This document shows, piece by piece, positions 23,670 through 55,737 of a DNA stretch of 62,790 nt (position 1 is its first letter; every line of letters begins with the position of its first letter). Below the pieces are notes generated by a model that saw only the letters and a program-made list of their open reading frames with translations, was not told the DNA's origin and made no database searches. This stretch comes from Raillietiella orientalis (lineage: Eukaryota): NCBI GenBank assembly GCA_036172245.1, contig JAYWIR010000114.1:62001-124790 (forward strand), read 5' to 3'. A program made the position numbers and the translations under genes.

Positions 23670-23711
23670 CGCCTTCCTCGCCTATGATTTTCCCCAAGTC
23701 CCACAAGGGGT
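23670..23711 (-). ncRNA. Partial U4 snRNA-like module (5' ~42 nt only)
   Basis: ACCCCTTGTGGGACTTGGGGAAAATCATAGGCGAGGAAGGCG matches the 5' part of the other junction modules and is fused to E1 ORF1. Confidence 0.7.
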
Positions 23712-23836
23712 GGGTTAAATTTATTTTCCTATTTAAATAACATTCACACTACAATTTCACATTCGCACTCTCATTCACTCGTTATACTACCACATTTTCT
23801 CTTTGAAGTTCTTTGGGGTCACTAGAGTTCTGCTTT

Positions 23837-27347: not shown

Positions 27348-27363
27348 GAAAGGGGAGAGAGTC

Positions 27364-29298: not shown

Positions 29299-29304
29299 CA
29301 GGCA

Positions 29305-29447
29305 CTTGCTCTGTCAGGGCACGCAAAAATTGCCTCGGCAGTGGTTTTACGCACTGCCTTGGCGGGGTATTGGGTAAAGTTTTCAACTAGCAATAATCGC
29401 GGCTCAGTCGCCTTCCTCGCCTATTTTCCCCAGGTCTTACAAGGGGT
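29305..29447 (-). ncRNA. U4 snRNA-like module (B variant)
   Basis: GCCGCGATTATTGCTAGTTGAAAACTTTACCCAATACCCCGCC is near-identical to the conserved metazoan U4 core. Hairpin GGCAGTG..CACTGCC, Sm site AATTTTTG (29324-29331), terminal hairpin with one mismatch. Confidence 0.85.
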
Positions 29448-32400
29448 GGGGTAAATTTATTTTCTATAAAACATTCACGCTACAATCACATTCATACACT
29501 TTCACTTTTTCTCACTTATCACTGATCACTTGGGCACTTGTTCTTAAAGTTCACTTCTGGGCGTCTGAAAAGTCACTGCTCTACTTACCTTGGATCCGCT
29601 TGGGTTCGGAGACTTCCTTCTATCCTTCTCAGGATGTGTCGGTAGTTCCAAACTTGCACTCGTCCGCAGTTTCGGATGCCAATCTCCTTCTGGATCAACC
29701 CTTGCAGGATCTCCATCGGAGATATGGCGGTCCTCGTGGTCCTCATCTTCCACCACCGCACAAGGATGGCGGTGATGAAAAGGGCGATGGTCACTCTGAC
29801 CATGGGGTTGTAGCGTGAAACCGTTCCAGTTACCTGGAACACTCCTGCCAGAACGTCGATGGTCGAGGCGTTGTTCAGCCCGATGACCCTTTTCAGGGTT
29901 GTCCACTCGGATTGCAATGTGGGGCAGGTCAAGACATGTCTGTCTGAATCTAATCCACCACATGCTTTGCAGGTTTCTTCTTCTCGTCGTCCCGTGAAGA
30001 GCTTCATTCTCGTGCCGCATATAATCCCCCCATGATAAAACATGAGGAGATTGTCCTGTGTATCTGGTGGTAGGTCACTCCTCCATAGCACCGTACCGAT
30101 CGCTAGTGGGTTGAATCCACTGCTTGCGTATCGGTCGGCAGCATCTTGGAGGGCACTGTGGTCTTGTTCTTCCGTGATGATATCTTTCCTGTTCTTCTTC
30201 GTTACCCTGCACCACGCATGGTTAGGATGGCTTTTCCATACCTCGCGGGTCTTCAGGGTAACGGATCCACTCATCCTTTCCACGTGACGAAGTACCCGTG
30301 AATGATGAAGGTATCTTCGCCGTGTCCAGGATTCCAGTTCTCCGGATTTCCAGTTCTCTGGACCGCTGGCGTATCCAGCTCCTCGTGTCATCCTGTACGG
30401 GGAGCATCCAAGGGATAACCAGGATGGATTCCTCCTGCCAGAGTTCCTTGCTTCTCGGGATGATCTTGATTCCCTCGCTCTTGATCAATCTTTGTTTCCG
30501 CCTCCACGTTGGGTCGATGGTTGACCATTCGTCCACTCTGCCGACGAGCGCAGTCATCAGGCCCCTCGAGTTATTAATTAACAACGAGTATGCCCTATGC
30601 GCCGCGTACGGCCAGTCGTCCCAGTTGGAAGACATCTCCAGGATGTGTCGCACGTCCATGTTGTTCACGGCGTGTGCAGGCGACTTCATCCCGGTTCCTC
30701 CCTCCTCCCTCGGACGACAAAGTGGCTTCAGGCGTACTCTAGGACGGTATCCTCCCCACAGGGTCTTACTCTGCAGCTTTTCCACTTCTCGCTTGGTGTC
30801 TTTCGACATGTTGCTGAAGGCCGCTCCGAAAAGTACCTTCGGAAGGAGAACTCCATTCCAAAGGTTGGCCCTCTGCTTCATGTTGAAGTCCGAGCGCGTG
30901 TACTTCGCTCCTTCTTCAGATACTTTCCCCAGGATTTCCTTCCACAACAGTTGGGACGCGGATGCATCACCAATGTGGATACCTAGGTACTTGATCGTGT
31001 CCACCGTACGGAAACCTTCACTCACGAGTGTTGTGAGGTCCAGGATGCCGACGGGCAAGAGTTTGCTTTTCTGGACATTGATTTTAAGCCCCAATCCTTT
31101 CTCCATGAGCTCAACCACATGCAAGAAGCCTCGCTGATCTCTCTCCCCTTTGAGAAAGATGAGAAGATCGTCCGCGTAGGCGAGATGGGTGAGTCTCTGT
31201 TGGTCCACTTTGATTCCTCGGAGATACCCGGTTCTGTCGATGAACGACGAGAGGGCCTCCATGTAGATGACAAACAGCATCGGACTTAGCGCGTCGCCTT
31301 GACGGAATCCGCGTTCCATCCTGATGGCTGCTGTCGCTTCCCCATTGACGGTGATGCGGAATTCTTGGTCTTGTAGTACCATCCTGACGAAGTTGCTGAA
31401 GTATTCCGGGAGGCCCAGTCTTCCTAGAATCTTCAGCAGCATCCCATGGTCTACCGTGTCGAAGGCTTTCTCCATGTCAGTGAAGCTCAGCACCAAGTTC
31501 TCGCCTGTGTATCGGCTGAGTCCTATGGTGCCTTGTGCACACTTGACATTGTCCGACATGTGACGACCGGGCACCGCGCATGTCTGGATTGGAGATATAA
31601 GCCGCGGCATGACCTTGCCTAAGCGGTTGGCCCAGATCTTCGCCAACCACTTGGCATCGGAGTTCAGGATCGAGATTGGCCTTCATTGAGTGACCTGCGT
31701 GAGGTCACCGCCTTTCGGCAACAATCTCATCCGACTCTTGCTGAAGGACTTTGGTATTCTTCCTTCTTCTTTGATGCATAGCGTCAGCTGGAGGAACAGT
31801 CGCCGGTAGGCATGCAGATACCTCTGATAGTGGGAGATTGGAATACTATCAGGGCCTGCCGCCACATCCTTGCGAAGTTACTCGAACGCAGCTTTCACTT
31901 CTTCATCGGAGATATCTTCTTCCAGCATCTTCTTGCTCTTCTCGTCAATCCGGTTTTCCAGATGTTTCAGGAATCCTCGTTGATAGGTCTCGTCCGGTTG
32001 TTTCCTACGGAAGTGTTCTGCATAATGCCTGTGGAAGGCTTCTGCGATGTCTTCCGTCTTGCTCTTCGTCTGGCCTGCGTACTGGATGCTGAAGATATCT
32101 GTTGCCAGATTCTTCTTCTCCAGTACGCCAACTTCACCCTTGATGCTGTTGAAGACGTACCGGCTCTGATACTGTTGCCAGTACTTGGAGAGCGAGCGAT
32201 CTTGGATGTTGAGCTCGCGGTACGCGTCCTGCCTCAGTCTCTTGTCTCCAAACTGCATGTTGCAGAACAAATGGATGCGGTGCTTGAGGCTGTCCCAATC
32301 GGCGACCCTGCTGATGGTTGTAGTTTGCAGGATCACCTCCATCAGATCTTGATGATGGGGATGGGTCTCGAACCATTAAGGCATGGTGAGAATTGCCTCC

Positions 32401-34979
32401 CTCGTTGCCTTGCTTCGTCGAGGGTTTTCCGTCCGCAAGGTGAACCTCATCAACGGATGATCGGACACAGAGTGGGGAGTGTCTCGAAAACCGAGGACTC
32501 GGTTCCCAATGTCGGCACTGTAGAGGACGTGGTCGAGCGGCTTGTGGCTCGCAGTCAGCCACTGAAGTCCGAACTCGTCGGAAAGCCGCCGATACGCCTC
32601 CCTTCCTCTGACGTTCCGGGAATAGATGACTTCATCCAGGATGTTGAAGTCCCCAACGATGATGACGATGTCCTTCGCCTGCACTTTCTGGCGGAGGGCT
32701 TCATGAAGCACCTCCGCCCACTGGTGCTTTAGGTGGTGCGACCCGTAAACGTTCACCAGGAAGAGGTGGACGTTCGCGGACCAGGACAATCGTGAGACCA
32801 GAATTCTTCCAGGGACGGGACAGAAGACTTCCAGGATGGTGGCGGCAAGGCGGTTCTTGATTGCCGTTGCCACCTCCATGGTGTACCTCTGTCCCACGCT
32901 GGTGAACAGCTGGACGTTCATTCGTCTCTCCAATTCCAGGCTGATCTGCTGCCCCATCTCGTGGGTTTCCTGCAGGCAAACGATGTCGAAATGCCTGATC
33001 TTATGGGCTATTCTTCGTCTTCGCACCTGATCTTGCATTCCATTAACGTTCCAGGAGGCGATGGTCAGTCTCCCGGCTGTCGACAAGGATCAGGCCATAA
33101 AAGGTGGTATTAGTTTTTGGCCTTCCGCAGCTTCTTCTGGCGGGGAGACCTTTCTCTCCTTACCGCCGTCGAAGCTGGCTTCTCACTCCCGGCATCGCTC
33201 TCTGTGCCGGTGTGGTCTGTTGTATCGTTGTCTTGTTCGTTGGAGCGCTCTGGCTTGGCGACTGTTTTGCGCGGAAGGGTCTCCAGGGAGACCTTGGCGC
33301 AGTAGTTCCCCTTTACAATGCAGAGCTTGTTCTCCAGCCTGCCGCGCTCTTCCGGATCTATGAGGGCGTTGATTCCCTCCTGTGTTTCACCAATGCGTGA
33401 CAGGAGCTTCGCCTGCTGCACTTGGTTCACCTCCGTCTGTACCTCCTCCGCCAGCTTCACCACCTCCTCGGTGAGCTGCGCCGCCTCTTGCGAAGCCGGG
33501 GTAGCTTCGGTGATTTCCATCACCTCAGCTTCCGGCACTCCCTTCTGCGCAACAACCTCCTGCTGTTGCTCCACTACCTCGCCAACCGCCTGCTCGCCAA
33601 CCGCCTGTTCGCCACCCTGCTGCATCTCCTCGCCTACCTGCTTCTCGGCCTGTGCAGAGGAGGAGGATTCTGGCTCCCTCACGAGCCTCCTCCTCTTGCC
33701 GCCCTTCCCCACCTTAGTAAAGCCGTCCTCAGAAACAGGAGCGGCCTCCTTCGCCTTCCTCTGCTTCAGTGCTCTCTGAGGCTTGATCACCTCTTCGAGC
33801 ACTCGCGCCCTGACCGGTGAATGGATCCTCATCGTCCGGTAATTGGCAAACTCGGGACAGCACCATTTTGCGTGCCCTGGGGCCTTGCAAATTGAGCATA
33901 CCTCCGGCATGCTGCAATCACGGACTTGGTGGCCTTGCTTCCCACAGCGGAAGCATTTGGAACTTGGGCAGACGCCCTGTTTGTGTCCGAAGGATTTGCA
34001 ACCGTTGCAGAAAGCGGGTTGCGCCCTGTACCGCACAGAGACTCCCTGGTCATCCCCCTCGAAATGTATGGTCCCTGGAATCTGGGCATCCTATAACAGC
34101 TTTATCTTCACCGTCGCTTTTCCCGAAAAGATCTTCCCCGAGATGTTATGGAAGTTGCTGTCCAGTACCTCGCCGTACTGCGACACGCGTTTCCATACCG
34201 CCTTCTGTGTGATAAACGGCCCTAGCCCGCTCAGAAAAACGGTGGTGTACGGCATTTCGCCGACTCCACTCACCATTTTGCCCTGGATGTTGATTCCTTT
34301 TTCGATGAACTCCGCCAGGAGTTCATCGCACTCTGTGAAGATCGTGAACCCGAATGGCCCGGGCACGATCGCCTGCAACTTATCAACGTCTACCTGTTGC
34401 TTGTACAGCGCCAGGTAGACTTCCCGAATGTTATGCATTCGGATTAAACCGGTCTTCAACGTGACCGTCTTGACGTTTGGGCCCAACTTAACTATGGGCT
34501 CGTCAACTTCTTTGATCGGCCCGTACTCGGGCTTTCCGAATTTTCTCTACGGCTGGGTTGTTGCCGTCCCAGCCGCCACCGCCGCATAGGAAAACGTTGC
34601 CGCCGCCGGCGGCCGCCCCACGGTCGCAGCCGCCGCGCAAGATGGCGTCGCGTCATTAGCAATGGTTGGGCCTACGAGCCCTGCCGTTGCTAGGGGCGCT
34701 TCCGCCGTCGCCGCCGCCTTCGCAACCACCAACGTGGCCTGCCTTGCCTCCACCGCCGGTGTGGCGCCAGAAAAACACGATTGCCCAACCTCCATGGGCT
34801 GAGGCTTCTCCGTGGTTCCCATCCACCGCTGCTCTTGCATCTTGACGGGGTGCTGCTGCACCGCCGCCGGGGAGGGTCGCGACTCCTCCACCTTGGACTC
34901 CCTCTGGATGCTGCTGCTCCTGCTGCAGTCGCTGTGGGACGTACTGAGTAGCGCACTTACTGTTTTTTTTAACTATTCA
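29305..34979 (-). mobile_element. Array unit E3: full-length family B element including U4-like tail
   Basis: ORF1 ~34960-33110 (stops at 34547, 34091). ORF2 33098-29585 (stop at codon 3, also 32376, 31878, 31683). YADD intact. Confidence 0.95.
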
Positions 34980-35125
34980 CTTGCCCTCTCGGGGCACGCA
35001 AAAATTGCCGCGGCAGTGGTTTTACGCACTGCCTTGGCGGGGTATTGGGTAAAGTTTTGAACTAGCAATAATCGCGGCTCAGTCGCCTTCCTCGCCTACG
35101 ATTTTCTCCAAGTCCCACAAGGGGT
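34980..35125 (-). ncRNA. U4 snRNA-like module (A variant)
   Basis: Full 5' stem-loop ATCGT-A-GGC-GAG-GA-AG-GCGA-CT-GA-GCC-GCGAT, stem I TGCTAGT, Sm site, terminal TGCCC-CGAGA-GGGCA. Confidence 0.85.
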
Positions 35126-38100
35126 GGGGTAAATTTATTTTCTATAAAAATACAATTTTTGCATTCACACTCACATTCACTCTATCTTTACTCTTTGTCT
35201 CTCACTTTGAAGTCCTGGGGGGTTCACTAGAGTTCTGCTTTTACCTCAGGGTGGATTTCCATCTGGATGGTCCCGGGCGTCGTCCTCGATCCTCTTCAGG
35301 ATGAATCTGTACGTCCAGGCTTGGATGCGTCCACAATTCCTGATGCCGATCTCCTTCTTGATGAGTCCTTTCAGGATCTCCATCGAGGTTGCGGCTCTGC
35401 TGGCTCTTCTCATCTTCCACCACCGCACAAGTATGGCGGTGATGAAGAGGGCAATGGTCGTCCTCACCATGGGATTGTAACAGGGAACATTACCATTTCC
35501 CTGAAACATCCCGGCGAGGATCTCCATCGAGTTGTTCAGCAACAACGCGTAGGCCCTGTGCGCCGCATACGGCCAGTCATCCCAGTGAGTGGCTATGTCC
35601 AGGATGTGTCGCGTGTCCATGATTTCCATGGAATGTGCAGGCGACTTCATCCCGGAACCGCCTTCTTCCCTGGGACGACACAGAGGTTTGAGACGGACTC
35701 TTGGGCGATAATGGCCCCACAATGTTTTCCTCTGCAGCTTTTCTACTTCTCTTGTGGTTTCTTTATTCATTCGTGCGAAGGCCGCCCCGAAGAGTATCTT
35801 TGGTAGAAGTACTCCGTTCCACAGGTTGGCTCTTCGCTTCATGTTAAGGTCCACTCGAGTGTACTTCGCTGCTTCGTTGGCCGTTTTCCCCAGGATTTCC
35901 GTCCACAGCAGTTTCGACGCAGAGTCGTCGCCGATGTAGAGTCCCAGGTACTTAGCCGTGTCCACCGTACGGAATCCACTCCCCGTTAGAGTGGAGAGGT
36001 TCAGGATTCCGACGGGCAAAAGCTGGCTCTTTTGGGCATTGATTTTCAATCCCAGTCCCTGTTCCATGAGGTCGACCACATCCAGGAACGCTCCTTGATT
36101 CCTCTCTCCCTTGCTGAAGAAGAGGAGATCATCTGCGTATGCCAGATGGGTCAGGTGCTGACCATCAATGGAAATCCCTGATAGACGACCGCTTCTCTCG
36201 ATGTAAGAAGACAGCGCCTCCATGTATATGACGAACAGCATTTGACTTAGCGAGTCGCCCTGCCGGACTCCTCGTTCCATCCTAATTGCTGCCGTCTCTT
36301 GGCCGTTGATTTTGATACGGCAGTACTGGTTTTGGAGTACCGCCCTCACGAAGTTGCTGAAGTGTTCCGGAAGCCCAAGCTTCTCCAGAACATTCAGCAG
36401 CATCCCGTGGTCGATGGAGTCGAAGGCCTTCTCCATGTCGGTGAACACCAGTACCAGGTTCTCGCCGACGTATCGGCTGAGACCTACGATGGCCTGGGCA
36501 GAATTGACATTGTCAGACATGTATCGTCCTGGGACTGCACACGTCTGGACCGGAGAGATCAGCCTCGACATGACCCTGCCTAAGCGGTTGGACCAGATCT
36601 TCGCCAACCACTTGGCATCTCAGTTCAGGATCGAGATAGGCCTCCATTGATCGATCTGCGTGAGATCGCCTCCTTTTGGCAGCAATCTCATCCTGCTCTC
36701 GTAGAAGGATTCCGGAAGTCGTCCTTCTTCTCGGATGCAGAGTGTCAACTGGTGGAACAAACGCAGGTAGGCGTGCAGCTACCGCTGATAGTGCGAGATG
36801 GGTACACTATCAGGGCCTGCTGCCACATCCTTGCGAAGCTGCCCAAACGCAGTCTTCACTTCTTCCTCGGAGAACTCCTCCTCCAGTCTATTTCTTTGGA
36901 GGTCGTCCGTCCTCTTCTCGAGGTAACCCAAGAAGGCTTGCTGACTCGAGCGGCAGAGATCTTGTCGTCAGAAGTGTCTCGCGTAATGCCTGTGAAAGGC
37001 TTCCGCGATATCCTCCAACGTGTGTCGCTCTTGGCCGTCGCACTGGATGCAGAAGATATCTGTCGCCAGATTCCTCTTTTCCAGCACGCCGACCTCCCCT
37101 TTCATGTTCTGGAAGACGTACCGACTCTCGTATTGATCGAAGTACTTCGATAGGGAGCGATCTTGGATGTTCAGCTCCCGTTACGCTTCCTGCCTCATAC
37201 GCTTACAAAAATACTGCATATTGCAGAACAGATGGATCCTGTGCTTCAACCTGTCCCAGTCGGCGACTCTGTGGATGGTGGTTTCACGCAGAATCGCCTC
37301 GATGACCTCCTGGTGACAGAAAAGCGTTTCGAACCAGGCGGGCATGCAGATGAGCGCCGCCCTAATGGCCTTTTCCCTACGGGGATTTTCAGTGCGGAGT
37401 GTAAACCGTACCAATGGGTGATCGGACAACAGATGTGGAATGTCACGAAAACCCTGGATGCGGTTGTCTATCTCCGCACTGTGGAGGACGTGATCGATCG
37501 GCTTGTGGCTAGCTGTTCGCCAAAAAAGTCCGAACTCGTCGGACAGCCGCCGATACGCCGCTCTTCCCCTTGCATCCTGAGAATAGTTGATTTCCTGAAG
37601 GATGTTGAAATCCCCAGCGACGATGACTAGGTCCTTCGGTGCCACTCGTTTGCGGAGTTCTTCCTGCAGTTTCTCCGCGCACCGATGCTTGATCTTGTGT
37701 GGTCCGTAGACGTTCACCAGGAAGAGGTGAACGTTACTGGACCAGGACAGTCGCACGCCGATTACTCTGCCAGGTACCGGACAGAAGGTTTCCAAAATGG
37801 TGTGGGCGAGCCCGTTCTTGATGAGGATCGCCACCCCCATGGTCTTCTTCTGTCCCTCGCTGGCGAACAGTTGTCCGTCGAATCGGCGTTCCATCTCCAG
37901 GGCGTTCTGCTGCCCGAGACGGTGGATTTCTTGTAGGCACACCACATCCTGTCTTGCGATGGTCCGCATGACACTTTTTCTCTTTCCCTGGTCCGTCATT
38001 CCATTCACATTCCAGGAGGCGATGTTAATCCTCCTGGCACTGGACAGCGACGAGGCCATGAAAGGGGAGAGAGTCCTACTTGTTCTTGCGCGCCTTCCTT

Positions 38101-40009
38101 AACTTCTTCTGCTGGGGAGACTTGTTTAGTTTCCCCGTTGAAGAAGTGGGTTTTTCGCTACCGGCATCGCTCTCGGTGCCGGTGTGGTCGGTGGACTCGG
38201 GATCTTCTCCGGAGCGTTCCGCCTTGGCGATCACCTTGCGCGGGAGGGTCTCCAGGGAGACCGTCGCGCAGTAGACCGCCTTGACTTCCGAGAGCTGGGC
38301 CTCCAGATTCTCTCGCTCCGGCTCCGCAACCATACGGTTGACTTCGTCTTGAGCCTCGGAGATGCGGGTCAGGAGTTGCTCCTGTTGCGCCTCTGTCTGG
38401 CCTTGACGAACCTTCTACGCTAATTTGACCACCTCCTCGGTGAGTTGCAGGGCCTCCTGCGACTCCGGGGTGGGTTCCGGCATCTTCACCACTTCGTCTG
38501 TCACCTCCATCTTTTCGCCTTCCACTGCTGCAACCTCACGAGTAGGGGGGGGTTGTTGCTCCCTTACGAGCATCTTCCTCTTCCCCTTTTTCCCTATCTC
38601 GACGAGCCCGTCCGCCGAGACCGGAGCTGCCTCCCTCACCTTCTCTTGTTTCGCAAGCTGAGGTTTAAACACCTCAGCTAGCACCCTTTCCCTCACGGGG
38701 GATTCTCCACGGATTGTCCGGTAGTTAGCAAACTCCGGACAACTCCATTTGGCATGCCCGGGTTGTTTGCAGAACGAGCAAACTCCGGGCATGGTGCAAT
38801 TTCGGACCACGTGGCCCATCTTTCCGCACCGGAAACAGCGCACCTAGGACACGCGCCCATCCGGTGGCCAAAGTTTTTGCAGCCGGTGCAAAAGATCGGC
38901 TGCTGCCTGTATCGAATTGAGACGTCCTGCGACGCCTTGTCGATATGCACGTTTCCGGGGATTTGCGCCCCCTCCTTTAATTTTATCTTGGCGATCAGCT
39001 CGCCCGAGAAGATGTTTCCGGAGATGTTCTGGGTTTTCATCTCCAGAACCTCTCCGTATTGGGACAGGAAGTCCCACACCGTTTGTCTCTCGGTAAGGAT
39101 GCCAAGGCCATTCACGAAGACGGTCGTGTAAGGCATCTCGCCGATGCCTTGCACCATCTTCCCCTGGATATTGTTGCCCCTTTCGATGAGGGCCTCCTGC
39201 AGCTCCTCGCAGTCTGTATAAAGGAGAAATCCCGCTGAGTTCGGGATTATCGCCTGCAGCCGGTCAAAGTCCACATTCGTCTTGTAGAGAGCGCAGTACA
39301 CCTCCCTCACATTGTTGAACCAGATCAGTCCGGTTTTAAAAATTATCGGCTTGGACGCCGGGCTGAGTCGAACCATCGGCTCCTTCGTTCGAGTGATGAT
39401 TTCACTCGCCGGTTTGCCGAATGCTCTATTCGGTTGGGCAGAGGCCTGCCCCGCCGTCACCGCCGCATACGAAAAAGGCGGTTTCGCCGTCGCCGCCGAG
39501 CAAGATGGCGTCGCACCTTGCACTGTGTGCGCCGCGTGGACGCCCGCGGCTCCCGCCTGGGACGCCGCAGCCGCCGCTGCGGGCGCAACCCTCGTCGTCG
39601 CCGTCGCTGATGTCGCCGTAGGCGGGACCTTCGGCATCGCCGCCGCCGGCACGACCTTCCCCGCCGCGGGCGCGATCCTCGGCGTCGCCGCCGCGGGCAC
39701 GACCTCCATCGCCGTCGCCGCGGGCACGACCCTCGGCATCGCCGCCGCCGGCGCAGCAAAGCCTGCCGCGGGCGCGACCCTCGGAGTCGCCGCTGTCTCC
39801 TCGCCACTGCCGCATATTACCTCCATGTGTTCCTCCATGGGGGTCGACGGCTGCTCCACTTCTTCCTTGTGCCTCCTTGCGGCTGCCGTTGCTGCCGCGC
39901 TTCTTGTTTGGAGGACTTCCACCTCGGGTCCTTCGGCGCTGCTGCTGCTGCTGCTGTCGGGTATTTCCCTCGGTGGCACAGTCACTTCCACACTATTCTT
40001 TTCGAGGCA
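34980..40009 (-). mobile_element. Array unit E4: family A element with ~705-bp in-frame ORF2 deletion
   Basis: ORF1 ~40000-38076 (frameshift ~38843). ORF2 38059-35246 with stops; LLNNS is joined to MEILAG at 35527. Confidence 0.95.
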
Positions 40010-40155
40010 CTTGCCCTCTCGGGGCACGCAAAAATTGCCGCGGCAGTGGTTTTACGCACTGCCTTGGCGGGGTATTGGGTAAAGTTTTCAACTAGCAATA
40101 ATCGCGGCTCAGTCGCCTTCCTCGCCTACGATTTTCCCCAAGTCCCACAGGGGGT
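40010..40155 (-). ncRNA. U4 snRNA-like module (A variant, best preserved)
   Basis: Same elements as 34980-35125, with intact GTTGAAAACTTTACCCAATACCCCGCC. Confidence 0.88.
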
Positions 40156-43100
40156 GGGGTGAATTTATTTTCTATAAAAATACAATTTTCGCATTCACAC
40201 TCACATTCACTCTATGTTTACTCTTTGTCTCTCACTTTGAAGTCCTGGGGGGTTCACTAGAGTTCTGCTTTTACCTCAGGGTGGATTTCCAGCTGGATGG
40301 TCCCGGGCGTCGTCCTCGATCCTCTTCAGGATGAATCTGTACGTCCAGGCTTGGATGCGTCCACAATTCCTGATGCCGATCTCCTTCTTGATGAGTCCTT
40401 GCAGGATCTCCATCGGGGTTGCGGCTCTGCTGGCTCTTCTCATCTTCCACCACCGCACAAGTATGGCGGTGATGAAGAGGGCAATGGTCTTCCTCACCAT
40501 GGGATTGTAACAGGGAACATTACCATCTCCCTGAAACATCCCGGCGAGGATCTCCATCACGGAACTGGTCGTCATTCCAATGATCCTTTTCAGGATCAGC
40601 CAGTCGTGAAGGAGTGTGGGACACGTCAAGATGTCAAGTCTTGTATCGTTGTCACCACACGCCGTGCAGTCTCCGTCTTCCCGTCTTCTGGTGAAGTGCT
40701 TGAGTCTGGACCCGCTCAGGATACCTCCATGGTAAAACATCAGGAGGTTGTCCTGGGTGTCCGGCGGAAGGTCACTCCTCCAGAGCGTTGTGCCGATCGC
40801 CAACAGGTTGATGCGATCGCTCCCGTAGCGGTCGCCGGCTTCTTGGAGGGCACTGGTGTCCGTTTCTTCGTCTCTGATCATCTTCCGGAGGTTCTATTTG
40901 GTCACCCTCGACCACGCGAAGTCGTTGTGGTTAATCCACACCTCGCGGGTCTGGTGGGTGAACCTCCCTAACATCATCTCTATGTACCGGTGTACACGAG
41001 AATGATGTAGGTATCCTCCTCGGCGCCATTCCTGGATCCGTTGCAGGGTAACTCTGGGCCGCTGGTAGATCCAGCTTCTCGTGTCCGGAGGGACCGGAAG
41101 CATCCAGGGGATCACCAGGATGGACTCGTCCTGCCAGAGTTCCCTGCTTCTTGGCACGATCTTCATCTTGTGCTTTCGCACAAGCCGCTTTTTTCTTCTC
41201 TAGGTAGGGTCGATGGTGATCCATTCCCCTGCTCGGCCTAGCAGCGCAGTCATCAGGCCTTTCGAGTTGTTCAGCAACAACGCGTAGGCCCTGTGCGCCG
41301 CATACGGCCAGTCATCCTAGTGAGTGGCTATGTCCAGGGTGTGTCGCGTATCCATGATTTCCATGGAATGTGCAGGCGACTTCATCCCGGAACCGCCTTC
41401 TTCCCTGGGACGACACAGAGGTTTGAGACGTACTCTTGGGCGATAATGGCCCCACAAAGTTTTTCTCTGCAACTTTTCTACTTCTCTTGTGGTTTCTTTA
41501 TTCATTTGTGCGAAGGCCGCCCCGAAGAGTATCTTTGGTAGAAGTACTCCGTTCCACAGGTTGGCTCTTCGCTTCATGTTTAAGTCCACTCGAGTGTACT
41601 TCGCTGCTTTCTTGGCCGTTTACCCCAGGATTTCCGTCCACAGCAGTTTCGACGCAGAGTCGTCGCAGATGTAGACTCCCAGGTACTTGGCCGTGTCCAC
41701 CGTACGGAATCCACTCCCCGTTAGTGTGGAGAGGTTCAGGATTCCGACGGGCAAAAGCTGGTTCTTTTGGGCATTGATTTTCAAGCCCAGTCCCTGTTCC
41801 ATGAGGTCGACCACATCCAGGAACGCTCGTTGATTCCTCTCTCCCTTGATGAAGAAGAGGAGATCATCTGCGTATGCCAGATGGGTCAGGTGCTGACCAT
41901 CAATGGAAATCCCTGATAGACGACCGCTTCTCTCGATGTAAGAAGACAGCGCCTCCATGTATATGACGAACAGCATTGGACTTAGCGAGTCGCCCTGCAG
42001 GACTCCTCGTTCCATCCTAATTGCTGCCGTCTCTTGGCCGTTGATCTTGATACGGCAGTACTGGTTTTATAGTACCGCCCTCACGAAGTTGCTGAAGTGT
42101 TCCGGAAGCCCTAGCTTCTCCAGAACCTTTAGCAGCATCCCGTGGTCGATGGAGTCGAAGGCCTCCTCCATGTCGGTGAACACCAGCACCAGGTTCTCGC
42201 CAACGTATCGGCTGAGACCGACGGTGGCCTGGGCACACTTGACATTGTCAGACATGTGTCGTCCTGGGACTGCACACGTCTGGACCGGAGAGATCAGCCT
42301 CGACATGACCCTGCCTAAGCGGTAGGACCAGATCTTCGCCAACCACTTGGCATCTGAGTTTAGGATCGAGATAGGCCTCCATTAAGCGATCTGCGTGAGA
42401 TCGCCTCCTTCTGGCAGCAATCTCATCCTGCTCTCGTAGAAGGATTCCGGAAGTCGTCCTTCTTCTCGGATGCAGAGTGTGAACTGGTGGAACAAACGCA
42501 GGTAGGCGTGCAGGTACCGCTGATAGTGCGAGATGGGTACACTATCAGGGCCTGCTGCCACATAGTTGCGAAGCTGCCCAAACGCAGCCTTCACTTCTTC
42601 TTCGGATAACTACTCCTCCAGTCTACTTCTTTGGAGGTCGTCCGTCCTCTTCTCGAAGTAACATAGGAAGGCTTGCTGACTCGAGCGGCAGAGATCTTGT
42701 CGTCGGAAGTGTCTCGCGTAATGCCTGTGAAAGGCTTCCGCGATATCCTCCGACGTGTGCCGCTCTTGGCCGTCGTACTGGATGCAGAAGATATCTGTTG
42801 CCAGATTCCTCTTTTCCAGCACGCCAACCTCCCCTTTCGTGTTCTGGAAGACGTACCGACTCTCGTACTGATCGAAGTACTTCGAGAGGGAGCGATCTTG
42901 GATGTTCAGCTCCCGGTACGCTTCCTGCCTCATGCGCTTACAGAAGTACTGCATATTGCAGAACAGATGGATCCTGTGCTTCAACCTGTCCCAGTCGGCG
43001 AGTCTGCGGATGCTGGTGTCCCGCATAATCGCCTCGATGGCCTCCTGGTGACAGGGAAGCGTTTCGAACCAGGCGGGCATGCAGATGAGCGCCGCCCTAA

Positions 43101-43809
43101 TGGCCTTCTCCCTACGGGGATTTTCAGTGCGGAGTGTAAACCGTACCAATGGGTGATCGGACAACAGATGTGGAATGTCACGAAAACCCTGGATGCGGTT
43201 GTCTATCTCCGCACTGTGGAGGACGTGATCGATCGGCTTGTGGCTAGCTGTTCGCCACAAAAGTCCGAACTCGTCGGACAGCCGCCGATACGCTGCTCTT
43301 ACCCTTGCATCCTGAGAATACTTGATTTCGTCAAGGATGTTGAAATCCCCTGCGACGATGACTATGTCCTTCGGTGCCACTCGTTTGCGGAGTTCTTCTT
43401 GCAGTTTCTCCGCGCACCGATGCTTGATCTTGTGCGGTCCGTAGACGTTCACCAGGAAGAGGTGAACGTTACTGGAACAGGACAGTCGCACGCCAATTAC
43501 TCTGCGAGGTACCGGACAGAAGGTTTCCAAAATGGTGTGGGCGAGCTCGTTCTTGATGAGGATCGCCACCCCCATGGTCTTCTTCTGTCCCTCGCTGGCG
43601 AACAGTTGTCCGTCGAATCGGCGTTCCATCTCCAGGGCGTTGTGTTGCCCGAGACGGTGGATTTCTTGGAGGCACACCACATTAAATTTTGCGATGGTCC
43701 GCATGATGATCTTTCTCTTTCCCTGGTCCGTCAGTCCATTCACATTCCAGGAGGCGATGTTAATCCTCCTGGCACTGGACAGCGACGAGGCCATGAAAAG
43801 GGGGGAGTC

Positions 43810-45717
43810 CTACTTCACCTTTCTTGCCTTCCTTAGCTTCTTCTGCTGGGGAGACTTGTTCAGTTTTCCTGCTGAAGAAGTGGGTTTTTCACTGCCGGCA
43901 TCACTCTCGGTGCCGGTGTGATCAGTGGACTCCTGTTCGTCCACAGAGCGTTCCGCCTTGGCGACCACCTTGCGCGGAAGGGTCTCCAGCGAGACCGTCG
44001 CACAGAATGCAGCCTTCAGGTCGCCCAGCTGGTCCTCCAGCTTTTCCCGCTCTGGTTCTACAACCGTGCGGTTTACATCGTCTTGGACCTCGCAGACGCG
44101 GTTTAGGATTTTTGCCTGTTCCGCCTCCGGTTGGCCCTGGCGAACCTCCTCTGCCAGTTTAACCACCTCCTCGGAAAGTTGCAGGGCCTCCTGCGTCTCC
44201 GGGACTGGTTCTGGCGTCTTCTCCTCCTTCTCCGTTTCCTCCGCCACCTCCATAATCTCGCCTACCGCCGCTTCAACTACCGGGGTTTGAGGAATCTGTT
44301 GCTCCCATGCGAGCATCTTCCTTTTCCTTTTCTTCCCCACCTCCACGAAGCCGTCTGTCGAAACCGGAGCGGCCTCTCTTGTTTTCCTCTGCTTTGCTAG
44401 CTGAGGTTTGATTACCTCAGCTAGCACCCTTTCCCTTACCGGGGACTCTCCTCTAATCGTCCGGTAGTTTGCATACTCCGGACAACTCCATTTCGCATGC
44501 CCTGGTTGCTTGCAAAAGGGGCAAAGCTCGGGCATGCTACAGTTCCGGACCTGGTGGCCCTGTTTCCCGCACCTGAAGCAGCGAGATCTAGGGCAGGCAC
44601 CCATCCGGTGGCCAAAGTCCTTGCAACCGAGACAGAAGATCGGTTGCTGGCGGTACCTGACGTTCACCTCTTGCGAGGTTTCGTCAATGTGCACTAAACC
44701 GGGGATTTGGGCACCTTCTTTAAGCTTAATTTTGGCGATTACTTCGCCCGAGAAGATGTCTCCAGAGATGTTCTGGAAGCTTACATCCAGAACCTCTCCG
44801 TATTTCTCCAGGAAATCCCACACCGTTTCTTGTTCGGTGAAGATTCCCACTCCGCTGAGGTGGACGGTGGTGTAAGGCATTTCTCCTACGCCTTGTACCA
44901 TTTTCCCCTGAATATTGATTCCCTTTTCGATTAGGGCCTCCCGCAATTCATCGCAGTCCGTGTACAGTGTAAAACCTGACGTGCTGGGAATGATCGCTTG
45001 GAGACGATCAAAGTCGACGTTGGTTTTAAAAAGAGCACAGTACACCTCTCTTACATTGTTAAACCGGATCAATCCGGTTTTAAACATAATTGGTTTCGAC
45101 GCTGGACTTAGGCGAACCATTGGTTCTTTGCATCGCGTGATGCGTCCAGTCGTCGGCTTCTTGAAAGTTCGGTTTGGCTGGGCAGAGGCCTGCCCCGCCG
45201 TAACCGCCGCATACGAAAACGGCTTTGTAGCCGAACCCGAACAAGATGACGTCGCCATGTACGCCGCGTGGACGCCCGGGGCTCCCGCCTGGGACGCCGC
45301 CGCCGCCGCTGCGGGCGCAACCCTCATCGTCGCCGTCGCCGATGTCGCCGTAGGCGGGACCTTCGGCATCGCCGCCGCCGGCACGACCTTCCCCGCCGCG
45401 GGCGCGATCCTCGGCGTCGCCGCCGCGGGCACGACCTCCATCGCCGTCGCCGCGGGCACGACCCTCGGCATCGCCGCCGCCGGCGCAGCAAAGCCTGCCG
45501 CGGGAGCGACCCTCGGCGTCGCCGCTGCCTCCTCGCCACTGCCGCATATTACCTCCATGTGTTCTTCCATGGGGGTCGACGGCTGCTCCACTCCTTGTAT
45601 GTGCCTCCTTGCGGCTGCCGTTGCTGCCGCACTTCTTGTTTGGAGGACTTCCACCTCGGGTCCTTCGGCGCTGCTGCTGCTGTCGGGTATTTCCCTCGGT
45701 GGCACAGTCACTTCCAC
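43810..45717 (-). CDS. E5 ORF1 (RRM-like + 3 CCHC)
   Basis: 635-codon open frame, first ATG at 45570. CLGCKDFGHRMGAC, CFRCGKQGHQVRNC, CPFCKQPGHAKWSC. Confidence 0.9.
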   Translation of the reverse strand: MEVTVPPREIPDSSSSAEGPEVEVLQTRSAAATAAARRHIQGVEQPSTPMEEHMEVICGSGEEAAATPRVAPAAGFAAPAAAMPRVVPAATAMEVVPAAATPRIAPAAGKVVPAAAMPKVPPTATSATATMRVAPAAAAAASQAGAPGVHAAYMATSSCSGSATKPFSYAAVTAGQASAQPNRTFKKPTTGRITRCKEPMVRLSPASKPIMFKTGLIRFNNVREVYCALFKTNVDFDRLQAIIPSTSGFTLYTDCDELREALIEKGINIQGKMVQGVGEMPYTTVHLSGVGIFTEQETVWDFLEKYGEVLDVSFQNISGDIFSGEVIAKIKLKEGAQIPGLVHIDETSQEVNVRYRQQPIFCLGCKDFGHRMGACPRSRCFRCGKQGHQVRNCSMPELCPFCKQPGHAKWSCPEYANYRTIRGESPVRERVLAEVIKPQLAKQRKTREAAPVSTDGFVEVGKKRKRKMLAWEQQIPQTPVVEAAVGEIMEVAEETEKEEKTPEPVPETQEALQLSEEVVKLAEEVRQGQPEAEQAKILNRVCEVQDDVNRTVVEPEREKLEDQLGDLKAAFCATVSLETLPRKVVAKAERSVDEQESTDHTGTESDAGSEKPTSSAGKLNKSPQQKKLRKARKVK

Positions 45718-45735
45718 ACTAATCTTCGGCAGGCA

Positions 45736-45878
45736 CTTGCCCTGTCAGGGCACACAAAAATTGCCTCGGCAGTGGTTTTACGCACTGCCTTGGCGGGGTA
45801 TTGGGTAAAGTTTTCAACTAGCAATAATCGCGGCTCAGTCGCCTTCCTCGCCTATTTTCCCCAGGTCCCACAAGGGGT
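45736..45878 (-). ncRNA. U4 snRNA-like module (B variant)
   Basis: U4 core, Sm site, terminal TGCCCT-GAC-AGGGCA. 3-nt deletion in the 5' stem-loop base. Confidence 0.85.
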
Positions 45879-46015
45879 GAAGTAAATTTATTTTCTATAA
45901 AACATTCCCGCTACAATCACATTCATACACTTTCACTTTTCCTCACTTGTCACCGGTCACTTTGGCACTTGTGCTTAAAGTTCACTTCTGGGCGTCTGAA
46001 AAGTCACTGCTTTAC

Positions 46016-49000
46016 TTACCTTGGATCCGCTTGGGTTCGGAGACTTCCTTCTATCCTTCTCAGGATGTGTCGGTAGTTCCAAACTTGAACTCGTACGCAG
46101 TTTCGGATGCCAATCTCCTTCTGGATCAACCCTTGCAGGATCTCCATCGGAGATATGGCAGTCCTCGTGGACCTCATCTTCCACCACCGCACAAGGATGG
46201 CGGTGATGAAAAGGGCGATGGTCACTCTGACCATGGGTTTTAGCGTGGAACTGTTCCAGTTCCCTGGAACATTCCTGCCAGAACGTCCATGGTCGAGGCG
46301 TTGTTCAGCCCGATGACCCTTTTCAGGGTTGTCCACTCGGATTGCAATGTGGGGCAGGTCAAGACGTTTCTACCTGAATCCAATCCACCACATGCTTTGC
46401 AGGTTTCTTCTTCTCGTCGTCCCGTGAAGATCTTCATTCTCGTGCCGCACAGGATCCCCCCATGATAAAACATGAGGAGATTGTCCTGTGTATCCGGTGG
46501 TAGGTCACTCCTCCATAGCACCGTACCGATCGCTAGTGGATTGAATCCACTGCTTGCGTATCGGTCGGCAGCATCTTGGAGGGCTCTGTGGTCTTGTTCT
46601 TCCCTGATGATGTCCTTCCTGTTCTTCTTCGTTACCCTGGACCTCGCATGGTTAGGATGGCTTTTCCATACCTCGCGGGTCTTCAGGGTAACGGATCCAC
46701 TCATCCTTTCCACGTGACGAAGTACCCGTGAATGATGAAGGTATCTTCGCCGTGTCCAGGATTCCAATTCTCCGAAGGTAACTCTGGACCGCTGGCGTAT
46801 CCAGCTCCTCGTGTCATCCTGTACGGGGAGCATCCAAGGGATAACCAGGATGGATTCCTCCTGCCAGAGTTCCTTGCTTCTCGGGATGATCTTGATTCCC
46901 TCGCTCTTGATCAATCTTTGTTTCCGCCTCCACGTTGGGTCGATGGTTGAACATTCGTCCACTCTGCCGACGAGCGGAGTCATCAGGCCCCTCGAGTTAT
47001 TAATTAACAACGAGTATGCCCTATGCGCCGCGTACGGCCAGTCGTCCCAGTTGGAAGACATCTCCAGGATGTGTCGCACGTCCATGTTGTTCACGGCGTG
47101 TGCAGGCGACTTCATCCCGGTTCCTCCCTCCTCCCTCGGACGACAAAGTGGCTTCAGGCGTACTCTCGGACGGTATCCTCCCCACAGGGTCTTCCTCTGT
47201 AGCTTTTCCACTTCTCGCTTGGTGTCTTTCGACATGTTGCTGAAGGCCGCTCCGAAAAGTACCTTCGGAAGGAGAACTCCATTCCAAAGGTTGGCCCTCT
47301 GCTTCATGTTGAAGTCCGAGCGCGTGTACTTCGCTCCTTCTTCAGATACTTTCCCCAGGATTTCCTTCCACAACAGTTGGGACGCGGATGCATCACCAAT
47401 GTGGATACCTAGGTACTTGATCGTGTCCACCGTACGGAAACCTTCACTCACGAGTGTTGTGAGGTCCAGGATGCCGACGGGCAAGAGTTTGCTTTTCTGG
47501 GCATTGATTTTAAGCCCCAATCCTTTCTCCATGAGCTCAACCACATGCAAGAAGCCTCGCTGATCTCTCTCCCCTTTGAGAAAGAAGAGAAGGTCGTTCG
47601 CGTAGGCGAGATGGGTGAGTCTCTGTTGGTCAACTTTGATTCCTCGGAGATACCCGGTTCTGTCGATGAACGAAGAGAGGGCCTCGATGTAGATGACAAA
47701 CAGCATCGGACTTAGCGCGTCGCCCTGACGGACTCCGCGTTCCATCCTGATGGCTGCTGTCGCTTCCCCATTGACGGTGATGCGGAATTCTTGGTCTTCT
47801 AGTACCATCCTGACGAAGTTGCTGAAGTATTCCGGGAGGCCCAGTCTTCCTAGAATCTTCAGCAGCATCCCATGGTCTACCGTGTCGAAGGCTTTCTCCA
47901 TGTCAGTGAAGCTCAGCACCAAGTTCTCGCCTGTGTATCGGCTGAGTCCTATGGTGGCTTGAGCACACTTGACATTGTCCGACATGTGACGACCGGGCAC
48001 CGCACATGTCTGGACCGGAGATATAAGCCGCGGCATGACCTTGCCTAAGCGGTTGGCCCAAATCTTCGCCAACCACTTGGCATCGGAGTTCAAGATCGAG
48101 ATTGGCCTCCATTGAGTGACCTGCGTGAGGTCACCGCCTTTCGGCAACAATCTCATCCGACTCTTGCTGAAGGACTTTGGTATTCTTCCTTCTTCTTTGA
48201 TGCATAGCGTCAGCTGGAGGAACAGTCGCCGGTAGGCATGCAGATACCTCTGATAGTGGGAGATTGGAATACTATCAGGGCCTGCCGTCACATCCTTGCG
48301 ATGTTCCTCGAACCCAGCTTTCACTTCTTCATCGGAGATATGTTCTTCCAGCATCTTCTTGCTCTTTACGTCAATCCGGTTTTCCAGATGTTTCAGGAAT
48401 CCTCGTTGATAGATCTCGTCCGGTTGTTTCCTACGGAAGTGTTCTGCATAATGCCTGTAGAAGGCTTCTGCGATGTCTTCCGTCTTGCTCTTCATCTGGC
48501 CTGCGTACTGGATGCTGAAGATATCTGTTGCCAGATTCTTCTTCTCCAGTACGCCAACTTCACCATTGATGCTGTTGAAGGCGAACCGGCTCTGGTACTG
48601 TTGCCAGTACTTGGAGAGCGAGCGATCTTGAATGTTGAGCTCGCGGTACGCATCCTGCCTCAGTCTCTTGACTCCAAACTGCATGTTGCAGAACAAATGG
48701 ATGCCGTGCTTGAGGCTGTCCGAATCGGCGACCCTGCTGATGGTTGTAGTTTGCAGGATCTCCTCCATCAGATCTTGATGATGGGGATGGGTCTCGAACC
48801 ATTGGGGCATGGTGAGAATTGCTTCCCTCGTTGCCTTGCTTCGTAGAGGGTTTTCCGTCCGCAAGGTGAACCTCATCAACGGATGATCGGACACAGAGTG
48901 AGGAGTGTCTCGAAAACCGAGGACTCGGTTCCCAATGTCGGCGCTGTAGAGGACGTGGTCGATCGGCTTGTGGCTCGCAGTCAGCCACTGGAGTCCGAAC

Positions 49001-49524
49001 TCGTCGGAAAGCCGCCGATACGCCTCCCTTCCTCTGACGTCTCGGGAATAGATGACTTCATCCAGGAGGTTGAAGTCCCCAACGATGATGACGATGTCCT
49101 TCGCCTGCACTTTTTGGCGGAGGGCTTCATGAAGCACTTCCGCGCACTGGTGCTTTAGGTGGTGCGGCCCGTAAACGTTCACCAGGAAGAGGTGACCGTT
49201 CGCGGACCAGGACAATCGTGAGACGAGAATTCTTCCAGGGACGGGACAGAAGACTTCCAGGATGGTGGCGGCAAGGTGCTTCTTGATTGCCGTTGCCACC
49301 CCCATGGTGTGCCTCTGTCCCACGCTGGTGAACAGTTGGACGTTCATTCGTCTCTCCAATTCCAGGCTGATCTGCTGCCCCATCTCGTGGGTTTCCCGCA
49401 GGCAAACGATGTCGAAGTGCCTGATCTTGTGGGCTATTCTTCGTCTTCGCACTGAATCTTGCATTCCATTAACGTTCCAGGAGGCGATGGTCAGTCTCCC
49501 GGCTGTCGACAAGGATGAGGCCAT
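46016..49524 (-). CDS. E6 ORF2 pol (APE endonuclease, reverse transcriptase, C-terminal Zn finger), nearly intact, ~1170 aa if repaired
   Basis: 1094-aa open frame 46240-49524, with the last codons shifted at ~46240. Catalytic YADD is altered to YAND and LQE to LRE, so this copy is probably inactive. Confidence 0.9.
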
Positions 49525-51387
49525 AAAGGGGTGGTGTTAATTTTTGGCCTTCCTCAGCTTCTTTAGGCGGAGAGACCTTTCTCTCCTTACCGCCGTCGAA
49601 GCTGGCTTCTCACTCCCGGCATCGCTCTCTGTGCCGGTGTGGTCTGTCGTATCATTGTCGTGTTCGCTGGAGCGCTCGAGCTTGGCGACTGTTTTGCGCG
49701 GAAGGTTCTCCAGGGAGACCTTGGCGCAGTAGTTCGCCTTTACGATGCAGAGCTTGTTCTCCAGCCTGCCGCGTTCTTCTGGTTCTATGAGGGCGTTGAT
49801 TCCCTCCTGTGTTTCACCAATGCGTGACAGGATCTTCGCCTGCTGCACTTGGTTCACCTCCGTCTGTACCTCCTCCGCCAGCTTCACCACCTCCTCGGTG
49901 AGCTGCGCCGCCTATTGCGAAGCCGGGGTAGCTTCGGTGATTTCCATCACTTCAGCTTCCGGCACTCCCTTCTGCGCAACAACCTCCTGCTGTTGCTCCA
50001 CTACCTCGCCAACCGCCTGCTCGCCAACCTGCTGCATCTCCTCGCCTACCTGCTTCTCGGCCTGTTCAGAGGAGGAGGATTCGGGCTCCCTCACGGGCAT
50101 CCTCCTCTTTAGCCATTCCCCACCGTCGTAAAGCCGTCCTCAGAAACGGGAGCGGCCTCCTTCGCCTTCCTCTGCTTCAGTGCTATCTGAGGCTTGATCA
50201 CCTCTTCGAGCACTCGCGCCCTGTCCGGTGAATTGCCCCTCATCGTCCGGTAATTGGCAAACTCGGAACAGCACCATTTTGCGTGCCCTGGGGCCTTGCA
50301 AAATGAGCAAACCTCCGGCATGCTGCAATCCCGGACTTGGTGGCCTTGCTTCCCACAGCGGAAGCATTTCAATTTGGGACAGACACGCTGCCTGTGGCCA
50401 ACTGATTTGCAACCGTTGCAGAAAACGGGTTGCGCCCTGTACCTCACAGAGACTCCTTGATCGTCACCCTCGAAATGGATGGTTCCAGGAATCTGAGCAT
50501 CCTCCAACAGCTTCATCCTTACCGTCGCTTCTCCCGAAAAGATCTTCCCCGAAATGTTGTGGAAATTGCTGTCCAGTACCTCGCCGTACTGCGACAGGCG
50601 TTTCCAGACCGCCTTCTGTGTGATGAACGGCCCTAGCCCGCTCAGAAAAACGGTGGTGTACGGCATTTCGCCGACTCCACACACCATTTTACCCTGGATG
50701 TTGATCCCTTTTTCGATGAACTCCTGGCGGAGTTCATCGCACTCTGTGTAGATCGTGAACCCGAATGGCCCGAACACGATCGCCTGCAACTTATCAAAGT
50801 CCACCTGTTGCTTGTACAGCGCCAGGTAGAGTTCCCGAATGTTATGCATTCGGATTAAACCGGTCTTGAACGTGACCGTCTTGACGTTTGGGCCCAAATT
50901 GACTATGGGCTCATCAACGTCCGTGATCGCCCCGGACTCGGGCTTTCCAAATTTTCTCTGCGGCTGGGTTGTTGCCGTCCCAGCCTCCACCGCCGCATAG
51001 GAAAAAGTCGCCGCCGCCGGCGGCCGCCCCACGGTCGCAGCCGCCTCGCAAGATGCCGTCGCGTGATTAGCAACGGTTGGGCCTAGGAGCCCTGCCGTTG
51101 CTAGGGACGCTTCCGCCGTCGCCGTCGTCTTCGCAGCCACCCCCGTTGCCTGCCTTGTCTCCACCACCGGTGTGGCGCCAGAAACACACGATTGCCCTAC
51201 CTCCATAGGTTGAGGCTTCTCCGTGGTCCCCATCCACCGCTGCTCTTGCATCTTGACGGGGTGCTGCTGCACCGCCGCCTGGGAGGGTCGCGACTCCTCC
51301 ACCTTGGACTCCCTCTGGCTGCTGCTGCTGCTGCTGCAGTCGCTGTGGGACGTCCTGAGTACCGTACTCACTGTTTTTCACTATTCA

Positions 51388-51530
51388 CTTGCCCTGTCAG
51401 GGCACGCAAAAATTGCCTCGGCAGTGGTTTTACGCACTGCCTTGGCGGGGTATTGGGTAAAGTTTTCAACTAGCAATAATCGCGGCTCAGTCGCCTTCCT
51501 CGCCTATTTTCCCCAGGTCCCACAAGGGGT
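51388..51530 (-). ncRNA. U4 snRNA-like module (B variant)
   Basis: U4 core, Sm site AATTTTTG, terminal TGCCCT-GAC-AGGGCA. Confidence 0.85.
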
Positions 51531-55662: not shown

Positions 55663-55737
55663 CTCGCCAACCGCCTGCTCGCCAACCGCCTGCTCGCCAA
55701 CCGCCTGCTCGCCAACCGCCTGCTCGCCAACCGGCTG
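55663..55737. repeat. 15-bp in-frame minisatellite in family B ORF1 (VGEQA)n
   Basis: CTCGCCAACCGCCTG x4 plus one variant copy. Fewer copies in E3, E6 and E8. Confidence 0.9.

Follow-up and report, generated by a model that had tools for sequence, protein, structure and literature searches.

A U4-derived RNA module is the conserved 3' terminus of LINEs arrayed head to tail in Raillietiella orientalis

What is a spliceosomal small nuclear RNA (snRNA) sequence doing between the units of a tandem array of long interspersed nuclear elements (LINEs)? This question is raised by a 62,790-base stretch of contig JAYWIR010000114.1 of Raillietiella orientalis (the window, by which we mean the whole stretch analysed), the right two-thirds of which self-comparison revealed to be a head-to-tail array of LINEs that lie on the minus strand in units of ~5.7 kb and have a U4-like module at their junctions. 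Such a module could be the tail of the LINE on its 5' side, the head of the LINE on its 3' side, or target DNA caught between the two. Our analyses show that the module forms the 3' terminus of the LINE that precedes it and is inherited with that LINE, and that no other part of the element evolves nearly as slowly as the tail to which the module belongs.

Scanning the whole window with the Rfam 15 covariance models at gathering thresholds, as the original prediction for this locus had proposed for the U4 model, we obtained six matches in total. Each of them was to RF00015 (U4), lay on the minus strand and spanned model positions 1-138 of 138, with a score (53.5-75.6 bits) above the RF00015 cut-off of 46 bits. 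Our reference copy, at 40013-40152 (75.6 bits, E 5.4e-15), ends the LINE unit A40, and the others end units A35 (34983-35124, 68.9 bits), B57 (57093-57230, 63.0 bits), B45 (45740-45877, 61.3 bits), B51 (51392-51529, 60.5 bits) and B29 (29309-29442, 53.5 bits), where A and B denote two LINE families whose tails are of variant a and variant b, respectively, with private loop changes added in B57. These positions lie within 3-4 bases of the starts predicted for six complete copies, and the two partial copies predicted at 23670 and 62758 proved in alignments to be real as well. The first of them, at 23670-23708 (minus strand), consists of the initial 39 nt of the a-type tail of unit A23, which keeps its upstream leader and is broken off and fused to a 5'-truncated B-like LINE. 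The second, at 62758-62790 (minus strand), is the final 33 nt of a further U4 tail that ends with the window; it is a mosaic whose internal-loop site is b-type and whose terminal hairpin is a-type, and so represents a third variant of the tail or else a recombinant. The LINE to which it belongs lies outside the window. No second U4 or tail remnant besides the known copy was found in bases 1-30000 at E-values up to 1.

With matches that run over the full model, the derivation of the module from U4 is borne out, and alignment to RF00015 showed it to be close to the model from the 5' stem-loop onward. Present are the GA/GA internal loop and the stem beside it, a central strand reading UUAUUGCUAGUUGAAAACU..., the Sm site AAUUUUUG, and two 3' hairpins, one central and one terminal. 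In U4 itself the GA/GA kink-turn (K-turn) binds Snu13, the Sm site binds Sm proteins, and the central single strand is the partner of U6 in stem I. Among the six copies these motifs are nearly invariant, loop positions excepted, and both families retain them. Within the 5' stem-loop, neither the GA...GA loop nor the adjoining GGC/GCC stem varies at all, and the Sm site is identical in the six complete copies and in the truncated one at 62758-62790. The module had been described as a near-complete U4, which holds for its layout of stem-loop, Sm site and hairpins but not for its 5' end, where only about half of the initial ~20 positions match the consensus. In U4 these positions are the pairing partner of U6 in stem II. 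Folding predicted that the leader sequence CCCCACCCC pairs with this altered U4 5' end (...GUGGG...UGGGG; 40140-40165 and equivalents, minus strand), and the predicted hairpin would thus sit where a real U4 pairs with U6, with both of its sides conserved in families A and B; among the six copies no covariation supporting this pairing was available. The DNA on the 5' side of the module is a LINE 3' untranslated region (UTR) with AATAAA and a TATA-like run, and that on its 3' side is the next LINE.

Read in the sense direction, each unit comprises a 5' end (AAGTG...), two open reading frames (ORF1 and ORF2), a family-specific 3' UTR of ~330 nt, a 33-nt conserved leader and the 140-nt U4 domain, after which the 5' end of the next unit begins; leader and U4 domain together make up a conserved tail of ~173 nt. 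Alignments place the leader of A40 at 40153-40185 (minus strand), with its AATAAA in the core at 40162-40172. The units follow one another in the order B57-B51-B45-A40-A35-B29-A23, with the families interleaved, and all lie on the minus strand: B57 at 57231-62757, B51 at 51530-57092, B45 at 45878-51391, A40 at 40153-45739, A35 at 35125-40012 with an internal deletion of ~700 nt, B29 at 29443-34982 with family A units on both sides, and A23, leader included, at 23709-29308. The deletion in A35, at 35527, falls in the C-terminal part of ORF2 and corresponds to positions 546-1250 of the A40 unit. Each of the seven junctions has one module only and a full-length LINE 5' end, and the new LINE starts straight after the U4 3' end (...GGGC/AAGTG), irrespective of which families are neighbours.

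Unlike a typical L1, these LINEs do not end in poly(A) or an A-rich tail. Between 200 nt upstream and 60 nt downstream of the module 3' ends, the longest A-run measured 4-5 bases at five of six junctions, and the run of 8 at the sixth (j35, behind A35) is part of the 5' end of the next LINE, in keeping with the prediction that the module lies on the LINE sense strand in the place of a poly(A) tail. The accompanying claim, that there is neither a poly(A) tail nor a target-site duplication (TSD), stands in its first half, but its second half cannot be asserted because the AAGTG that directly follows the U4 3' end (40008-40012 behind A40, minus strand) is common to all junctions and to both families, with the sequence beyond it differing between them. 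This AAGTG could be a 5-bp target duplication, microhomology or the element's own end. A little further into the LINE 5' ends, ~10-16 nt past the U4 3' end, the word GAAAAR occurs at five of the seven junctions (A35, B29, B45, B51 and B57) and GAAGA at the other two (A23 and A40; e.g. 39988-40012, minus strand), an A-rich word that we take to resemble the snRNA 3' box in position and content.

Ownership of the module was decided by the two tail variants. Variant a has T at column 47, contains TCG, reads CCGCGGC and has the hairpin CCCCGAGAGGGC, whereas variant b has C at column 47, is without TCG, reads CCGAGGC and has the hairpin CCCTGACAGGGC, so that the diagnostic sites are the T/C at column 47, the TCG indel, the C/A in the internal loop and two terminal-loop positions. 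Three of the four family-diagnostic substitutions (columns 47, 148 and 170) are unpaired in the Rfam-derived structure, and the one at column 167 is scored as paired, its placement in the terminal loop holding only under a one-base register shift, which is a manual reading rather than a computed result. The variant agreed with the family of the upstream LINE at all seven junctions for the 5' sites and at all six for the 3' sites. At the junctions where two families meet (B45|A40, A35|B29, B29|A23 and A23|B-like fragment) it matched the upstream LINE in 4/4 cases and the downstream LINE in 0/4. Because the variants track the upstream family in this way, the U4 is the LINE's own 3' end and neither a head nor a target, as the original prediction had proposed in treating the module as part of the LINE 3' end.

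Comparisons between the families then revealed how differently the tail and the rest of the element have evolved. Family A units (A23, A35 and A40) are 89-91% alike and family B units (B29, B45, B51 and B57) 95-97% alike, while units of different families are ~69-70% alike. Between the ORF2 sequences of A40 and B45, 1086 codon pairs aligned with no frameshift at 68% amino acid identity, with a synonymous divergence (dS) of 1.1 and a ratio of nonsynonymous to synonymous divergence (dN/dS) of 0.2, from which it follows that the families diverged as active elements under selection, and that the units are therefore independent insertions and not duplicates that diverged in place. Across the ~173-nt tail, the majority sequences of A and B differ in 4 of 160 columns (2.5%), as against 1474 of 5188 columns (28.4%) in the rest of the element and 12.4% in the best other 170-column window, which lies in the reverse transcriptase (RT) region. 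Divergence in the tail is thus ~11-fold below that of the rest of the element and 5-fold below that of the best RT window. Within family A, A35 and A40 are 98% identical over the initial 546 nt (34983-35528 versus 40013-40558), a stretch that covers the tail, the 3' UTR and the end of ORF2, and 89% identical further on, a pattern that points to recombination between LINE lineages or to gene conversion between adjacent units.

The elements themselves are autonomous APE-type LINEs of the L1/Tx1 group. ORF2 of B45 (46240-49524, minus strand) is open over 1094 aa, in which Pfam recognized the APE (PF03372, 6.5e-15) and RT (PF00078, 1.6e-30) domains, and its nearest solved structure is human L1 ORF2p (E 2e-48). 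Its closest library proteins are at most 36% identical, and the Atlas neighbours of the best ORF2 homologue, mostly from Chordata, are labelled both LINE-1 and TX1. In A40 the ORF2 (APE and RT; 40513-43794, minus strand) has 7 in-frame stops and zero frameshifts, which, taken with C>T and G>A as the most frequent differences among Logan contigs, looks like CpG-type transition decay. ORF1 encodes zf-CCHC knuckles that resemble those of retroviral nucleocapsid and Lin28; the frame lies at 43810-45717 in A40, with a CCHC knuckle, and is open over 644 aa at 27364-29298 in A23 (both minus strand). When ORF1 was examined for snRNP-related (small nuclear ribonucleoprotein) domains, none were found, only the CCHC knuckles. 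The N-terminal part of ORF1 also contains in-frame tandem repeats, which in family A have 27- and 48-nt periods (28909-29092, 39614-39793 and 45346-45529) and in family B a 15-nt period (55663-55738), with 5.1 copies in B51 and 2.7 in B57.

How, then, might such an array have arisen, and what might its tails do? We lean, with modest confidence, towards a reading in which the tail is a selected U4-derived 3' terminal RNA domain and in which integration directly behind resident U4 tails produces the head-to-tail arrays. U4 would have been acquired in a single capture by an ancestor, through a switch of templates or through read-through into a gene for U4, and the tail would by now be a selected cis-acting 3' module that sets and protects a non-polyadenylated 3' end and offers the handle at which ORF2p begins target-primed reverse transcription. 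The element would in addition prefer to integrate just behind a U4-type 3' end, and since each new copy would supply a fresh U4 pad, an array of mixed families and ages could grow. With every copy carrying its own landing pad, a LINE that prefers a certain site would have an easy path to forming long arrays of head-to-tail units. Successive insertions also fit better than a single concatemer because the divergence within family A differs from that within family B and because B29 lies between family A units. In a 455-nt contig from one Logan run (X1), the same tail follows a third variant of the 3' UTR, and the contig ends 5 nt beyond the U4 3' end; this contig may come from the sample behind the window assembly.

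Several observations weigh against this reading. All of the evidence comes from one array in one window, and no copy whose 3' end is intact was seen in the window outside the array, whether dispersed or solitary. The co-segregation of tail variant and family represents few independent events, with A35 and A40 sharing their 98% identical 3' region and with B45, B51 and B57 perhaps being in part duplicates from unequal exchange. Conservation of the tail could stem from recent tail exchange or gene conversion instead of selection. Among the six copies, compensatory changes were seen in 0 of 44 predicted pairs because the copies vary too little, the tail does not fold significantly better than shuffled sequence (z = -1.67, with 10 of 200 shuffles folding equally well or better), and family B is without three paired bases of the lower 5' stem, owing to the TCG indel.

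Compatible with selected tails and landing pads is the Sm-ring/SMN mechanism put forward in the original prediction, which we regard as a possible but doubtful one: the tail may assemble an Sm ring, and perhaps, beyond that proposal, Snu13 on the K-turn, and thereby give the LINE RNA a defined, exonuclease-resistant, non-polyadenylated 3' end and an snRNP-type nuclear import. The invariance of AAUUUUUG, of the GA...GA loop and of the GGC/GCC stem described above is what such assembly would lead one to expect, conservation extending to every protein-binding motif of U4 lends it some support, and the whole 140 nt is conserved, seemingly beyond what a nick site or primer annealing would need. On the other side, the equally conserved 33-nt leader is not U4-like, and Sm binding does not explain why the central single strand is perfectly conserved. 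Integrator-type 3' processing of snRNAs, moreover, requires an snRNA-type promoter, and no LINE is known to have one. A precedent for an Sm-directed 3' end on the RNA partner of a reverse transcriptase is found in yeast telomerase RNA, as described in the excerpted part of PMC7151599.

A more elaborate version, which we think unlikely, is that the LINE RNA acts as a protein-coding pseudo-snRNP. An Sm ring would form on the tail, with Snu13 on the K-turn, the leader sequence CCCCACCCC would fold onto the altered U4 5' end, and the DNA copy of the tail would serve as the homing site. If so, the element would have obtained a poly(A)-independent 3' end, stability and an snRNP-type nuclear import.

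The main deflationary rival to a selected tail is that the U4 is a functionless passenger, acquired in a single 3' transduction and then multiplied by few events of template jumping or double insertion together with unequal exchange, and kept uniform by gene conversion or tail swaps. RT template jumping gives precise, full-length head-to-tail joints without a TSD, which is the kind of junction it would have yielded here. The drop from 98% to 89% identity between A35 and A40 beyond 546 nt also implies that exchange between units occurs, the tail at 62758-62790 combines sites of a and b, and no compensatory changes were found. Against these points, a and b are still linked to their families at 7/7 junctions, the tail is conserved both among the A units, which are ~10% apart, and among the B units, and a divergence that is 11-fold or 5-fold lower than elsewhere is hard to reach by occasional conversion alone. 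The differing divergence within A and within B argues against a single concatemer event. On balance we consider a passenger origin of the pattern improbable.

Highly improbable, in our estimation, is that the LINEs are specific for U4 genes and that the intervening U4 is duplicated or left-over target DNA, in the style of R1 or of Utopia in U2. Site-specific LINEs are known in tandem arrays with target sequence between them (excerpts of 10.1101/158386 and PMC4640811), and the U4 5' end is the deviant part of the module here, which can be compared with the 5'-deleted U2 copies beside Utopia 3' UTRs (PMC4640811, in the same excerpts). A sandwiched target, however, predicts like copies on both sides of a LINE, and four of the seven LINEs (B57, A40, B29 and A23) have unlike U4 flanks, a count that we read from the alignments after removing like-flanked LINEs stepwise. 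In addition, the variants in the 3' part of the module track the LINE family at all six junctions, a single module with no empty U4 repeats stands at all seven, and the U4 is contiguous rather than split around a LINE. We also considered an interruption of an snRNA gene of the Keno or Utopia type and rejected it, the U4 being unbroken and its variants tracking the upstream LINE at 7/7 junctions. That the U4 is instead a 5' head of the downstream LINE, added by template switching as reverse transcription ends, is barely credible, for although some autonomous Tx1 LINEs do start with a 5' head that derives from U1 or U2, and U6-L1 chimeras likewise have their snRNA 5' (excerpts of PMC4494074), the variant matched the downstream LINE at 0/4 mixed-family junctions and the conserved block continues unbroken into the upstream 3' UTR leader.

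Placing a selected U4-derived tail among known systems, we found the closest precedents in two groups that the list of snRNA-retroelement links in the original prediction omits, namely the Tx1-Mar LINEs with snRNA heads (PMC4494074) and the Phytophthora Utopia arrays in U2 (PMC4640811), which, like the other sources compared here, we cite from excerpts. Kojima (2015) describes autonomous Tx1-Mar LINEs with U1- or U2-derived 5' heads, as also found in SINEU, and a figure legend there mentions a Tx1 family that targets U5 (PMC4494074). Like the elements studied here, Tx1-Mar LINEs are autonomous, APE-type and of the L1/Tx1 group, and they and SINEU have a heritable snRNA segment and a tendency to insert in tandem at a preferred target, but their segment is from U1 or U2, lies at the 5' end and is thought to be template-switched (PMC4494074), whereas ours is from U4, replaces poly(A) as the 3' terminus and belongs to the stretch of the element that is conserved best. 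The U2 arrays of Phytophthora hold several Utopia families, and U2 copies that have lost their 5' part directly adjoin the 3' UTRs of Utopia (PMC4640811), which is similar to our array in having several families per array and a copy of an snRNA, without its normal 5' end, at the LINE 3' UTR. Keno (Tx1 clade, U2), Utopia (NeSL clade, U2) and the U5-targeting Tx1 family likewise have LINE copies that adjoin an snRNA (PMC4640811, PMC4494074). These elements, unlike the LINEs described here, interrupt the gene, and the snRNA flanking them is the target, while our U4 is unbroken, occurs once per LINE and has variants that are inherited with the LINE. As of 2015, the snRNA targets listed in the excerpts of PMC4640811 were U2 (Keno, Utopia), U1 (Dada) and U6 (Dada) only, and not U4.

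Likenesses to other systems are more partial. In the R1 array of Drosophila melanogaster, too, copies of a site-specific LINE stand head to tail with a short constant spacer between them, an arrangement explained by repeated insertion at one site and unequal exchange (McGurk and Barbash, 10.1101/158386), but the spacer there is 33 nt of ribosomal DNA (rDNA) from a target duplication, whereas ours is 140-173 nt long, derives from U4 and tracks the upstream family. Stringent-type LINE 3' tails, which the ORF2p of the same element recognises, share with ours a conserved, structured and poly(A)-independent 3' end at which reverse transcription starts, and differ in being short LINE-specific stem-loops, none of which is given as spliceosomal-snRNA-derived in the excerpted part of PMC4176376. 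Yeast TLC1, the analogue named in the original prediction, is likewise the partner of a reverse transcriptase, and its non-polyadenylated form is stabilised by an Sm site close to the 3' end; unlike our elements it is a cellular non-coding RNA and not a protein-coding mobile element, and it is without a full snRNA body (PMC7151599). U6-L1 and other snRNA-L1 chimeras are also products of a LINE reverse transcriptase joining snRNA to LINE (PMC4494074; 10.1101/2025.02.02.635956), but these are one-off and dead, with the snRNA 5' of a truncated L1, while the U4 here is stably kept at the 3' end of full-length elements that belong to two diverged families. A paper on frog tandem repeats, in the part cited, merely lists a 138-bp satellite with U4/U5 similarity.

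We found no report in the literature of U4 as the terminus or target of a LINE; Repbase, Repbase Reports and Dfam lay outside this search, and a prior description there is possible. We would therefore file these elements under the known phenomenon of LINEs with captured snRNA modules, with the new aspects being that the captured snRNA is U4, that it is at the 3' end and that it is under strong constraint. Small-RNA pieces borrowed as 5' heads are familiar from LINEs, as is the targeting of snRNA genes, and within the same search no report was found of an autonomous LINE with a near-complete Sm-class snRNA as its 3' terminus. If functional, the tail would offer a test case for the way in which LINE RNAs without poly(A) form their 3' ends and shield them, for how a reverse transcriptase chooses the end of its template, and for the hijacking of snRNP assembly and import by a mobile element.

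Further sequence data and the surroundings of the array supply some minor observations. The Logan run with the 455-nt contig covers the LINE in short contigs, and the few matches in two other runs (X2 and X3) read as low-complexity only, namely (CTG)n at ~39940, a CA/CT-rich stretch at ~40186 and (TCC)n at 44218. Metagenomes scanned with a 22-base pattern from the tail leader yielded two matches, both by chance and with no U4 behind them.

Beyond the low-coordinate end of the array, two older LINE fragments at 18170-23597 (minus strand) have the same orientation as the array, one of them B-like and running from about aa 162 of ORF1 to aa 544 of ORF2, the other of a further family and running from aa 47 of ORF1 to aa 172 of ORF2. 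Both are without their 3' parts, and the original low-coordinate end of the array has therefore been lost to deletions. On the plus strand, LINE remains occur at 102-2002, 4107-5471 and 8387-10499, of which two are distant (23-32% amino acid identity to ORF2) and one, at 8387-10499, is a relative (66%). In this relative, similarity in the 3' UTR stops 74 nt past ORF2, at a sharp switch to AT-rich DNA, and it speaks neither for nor against a tail on dispersed copies. The adjoining stretch at 10500-18000, in which no tRNA genes, no Rfam match above threshold and, for the two ORFs tested, no Pfam match were found, is AT-rich, with 37-43% GC as compared with 52-60% in the LINE-rich parts of the window.

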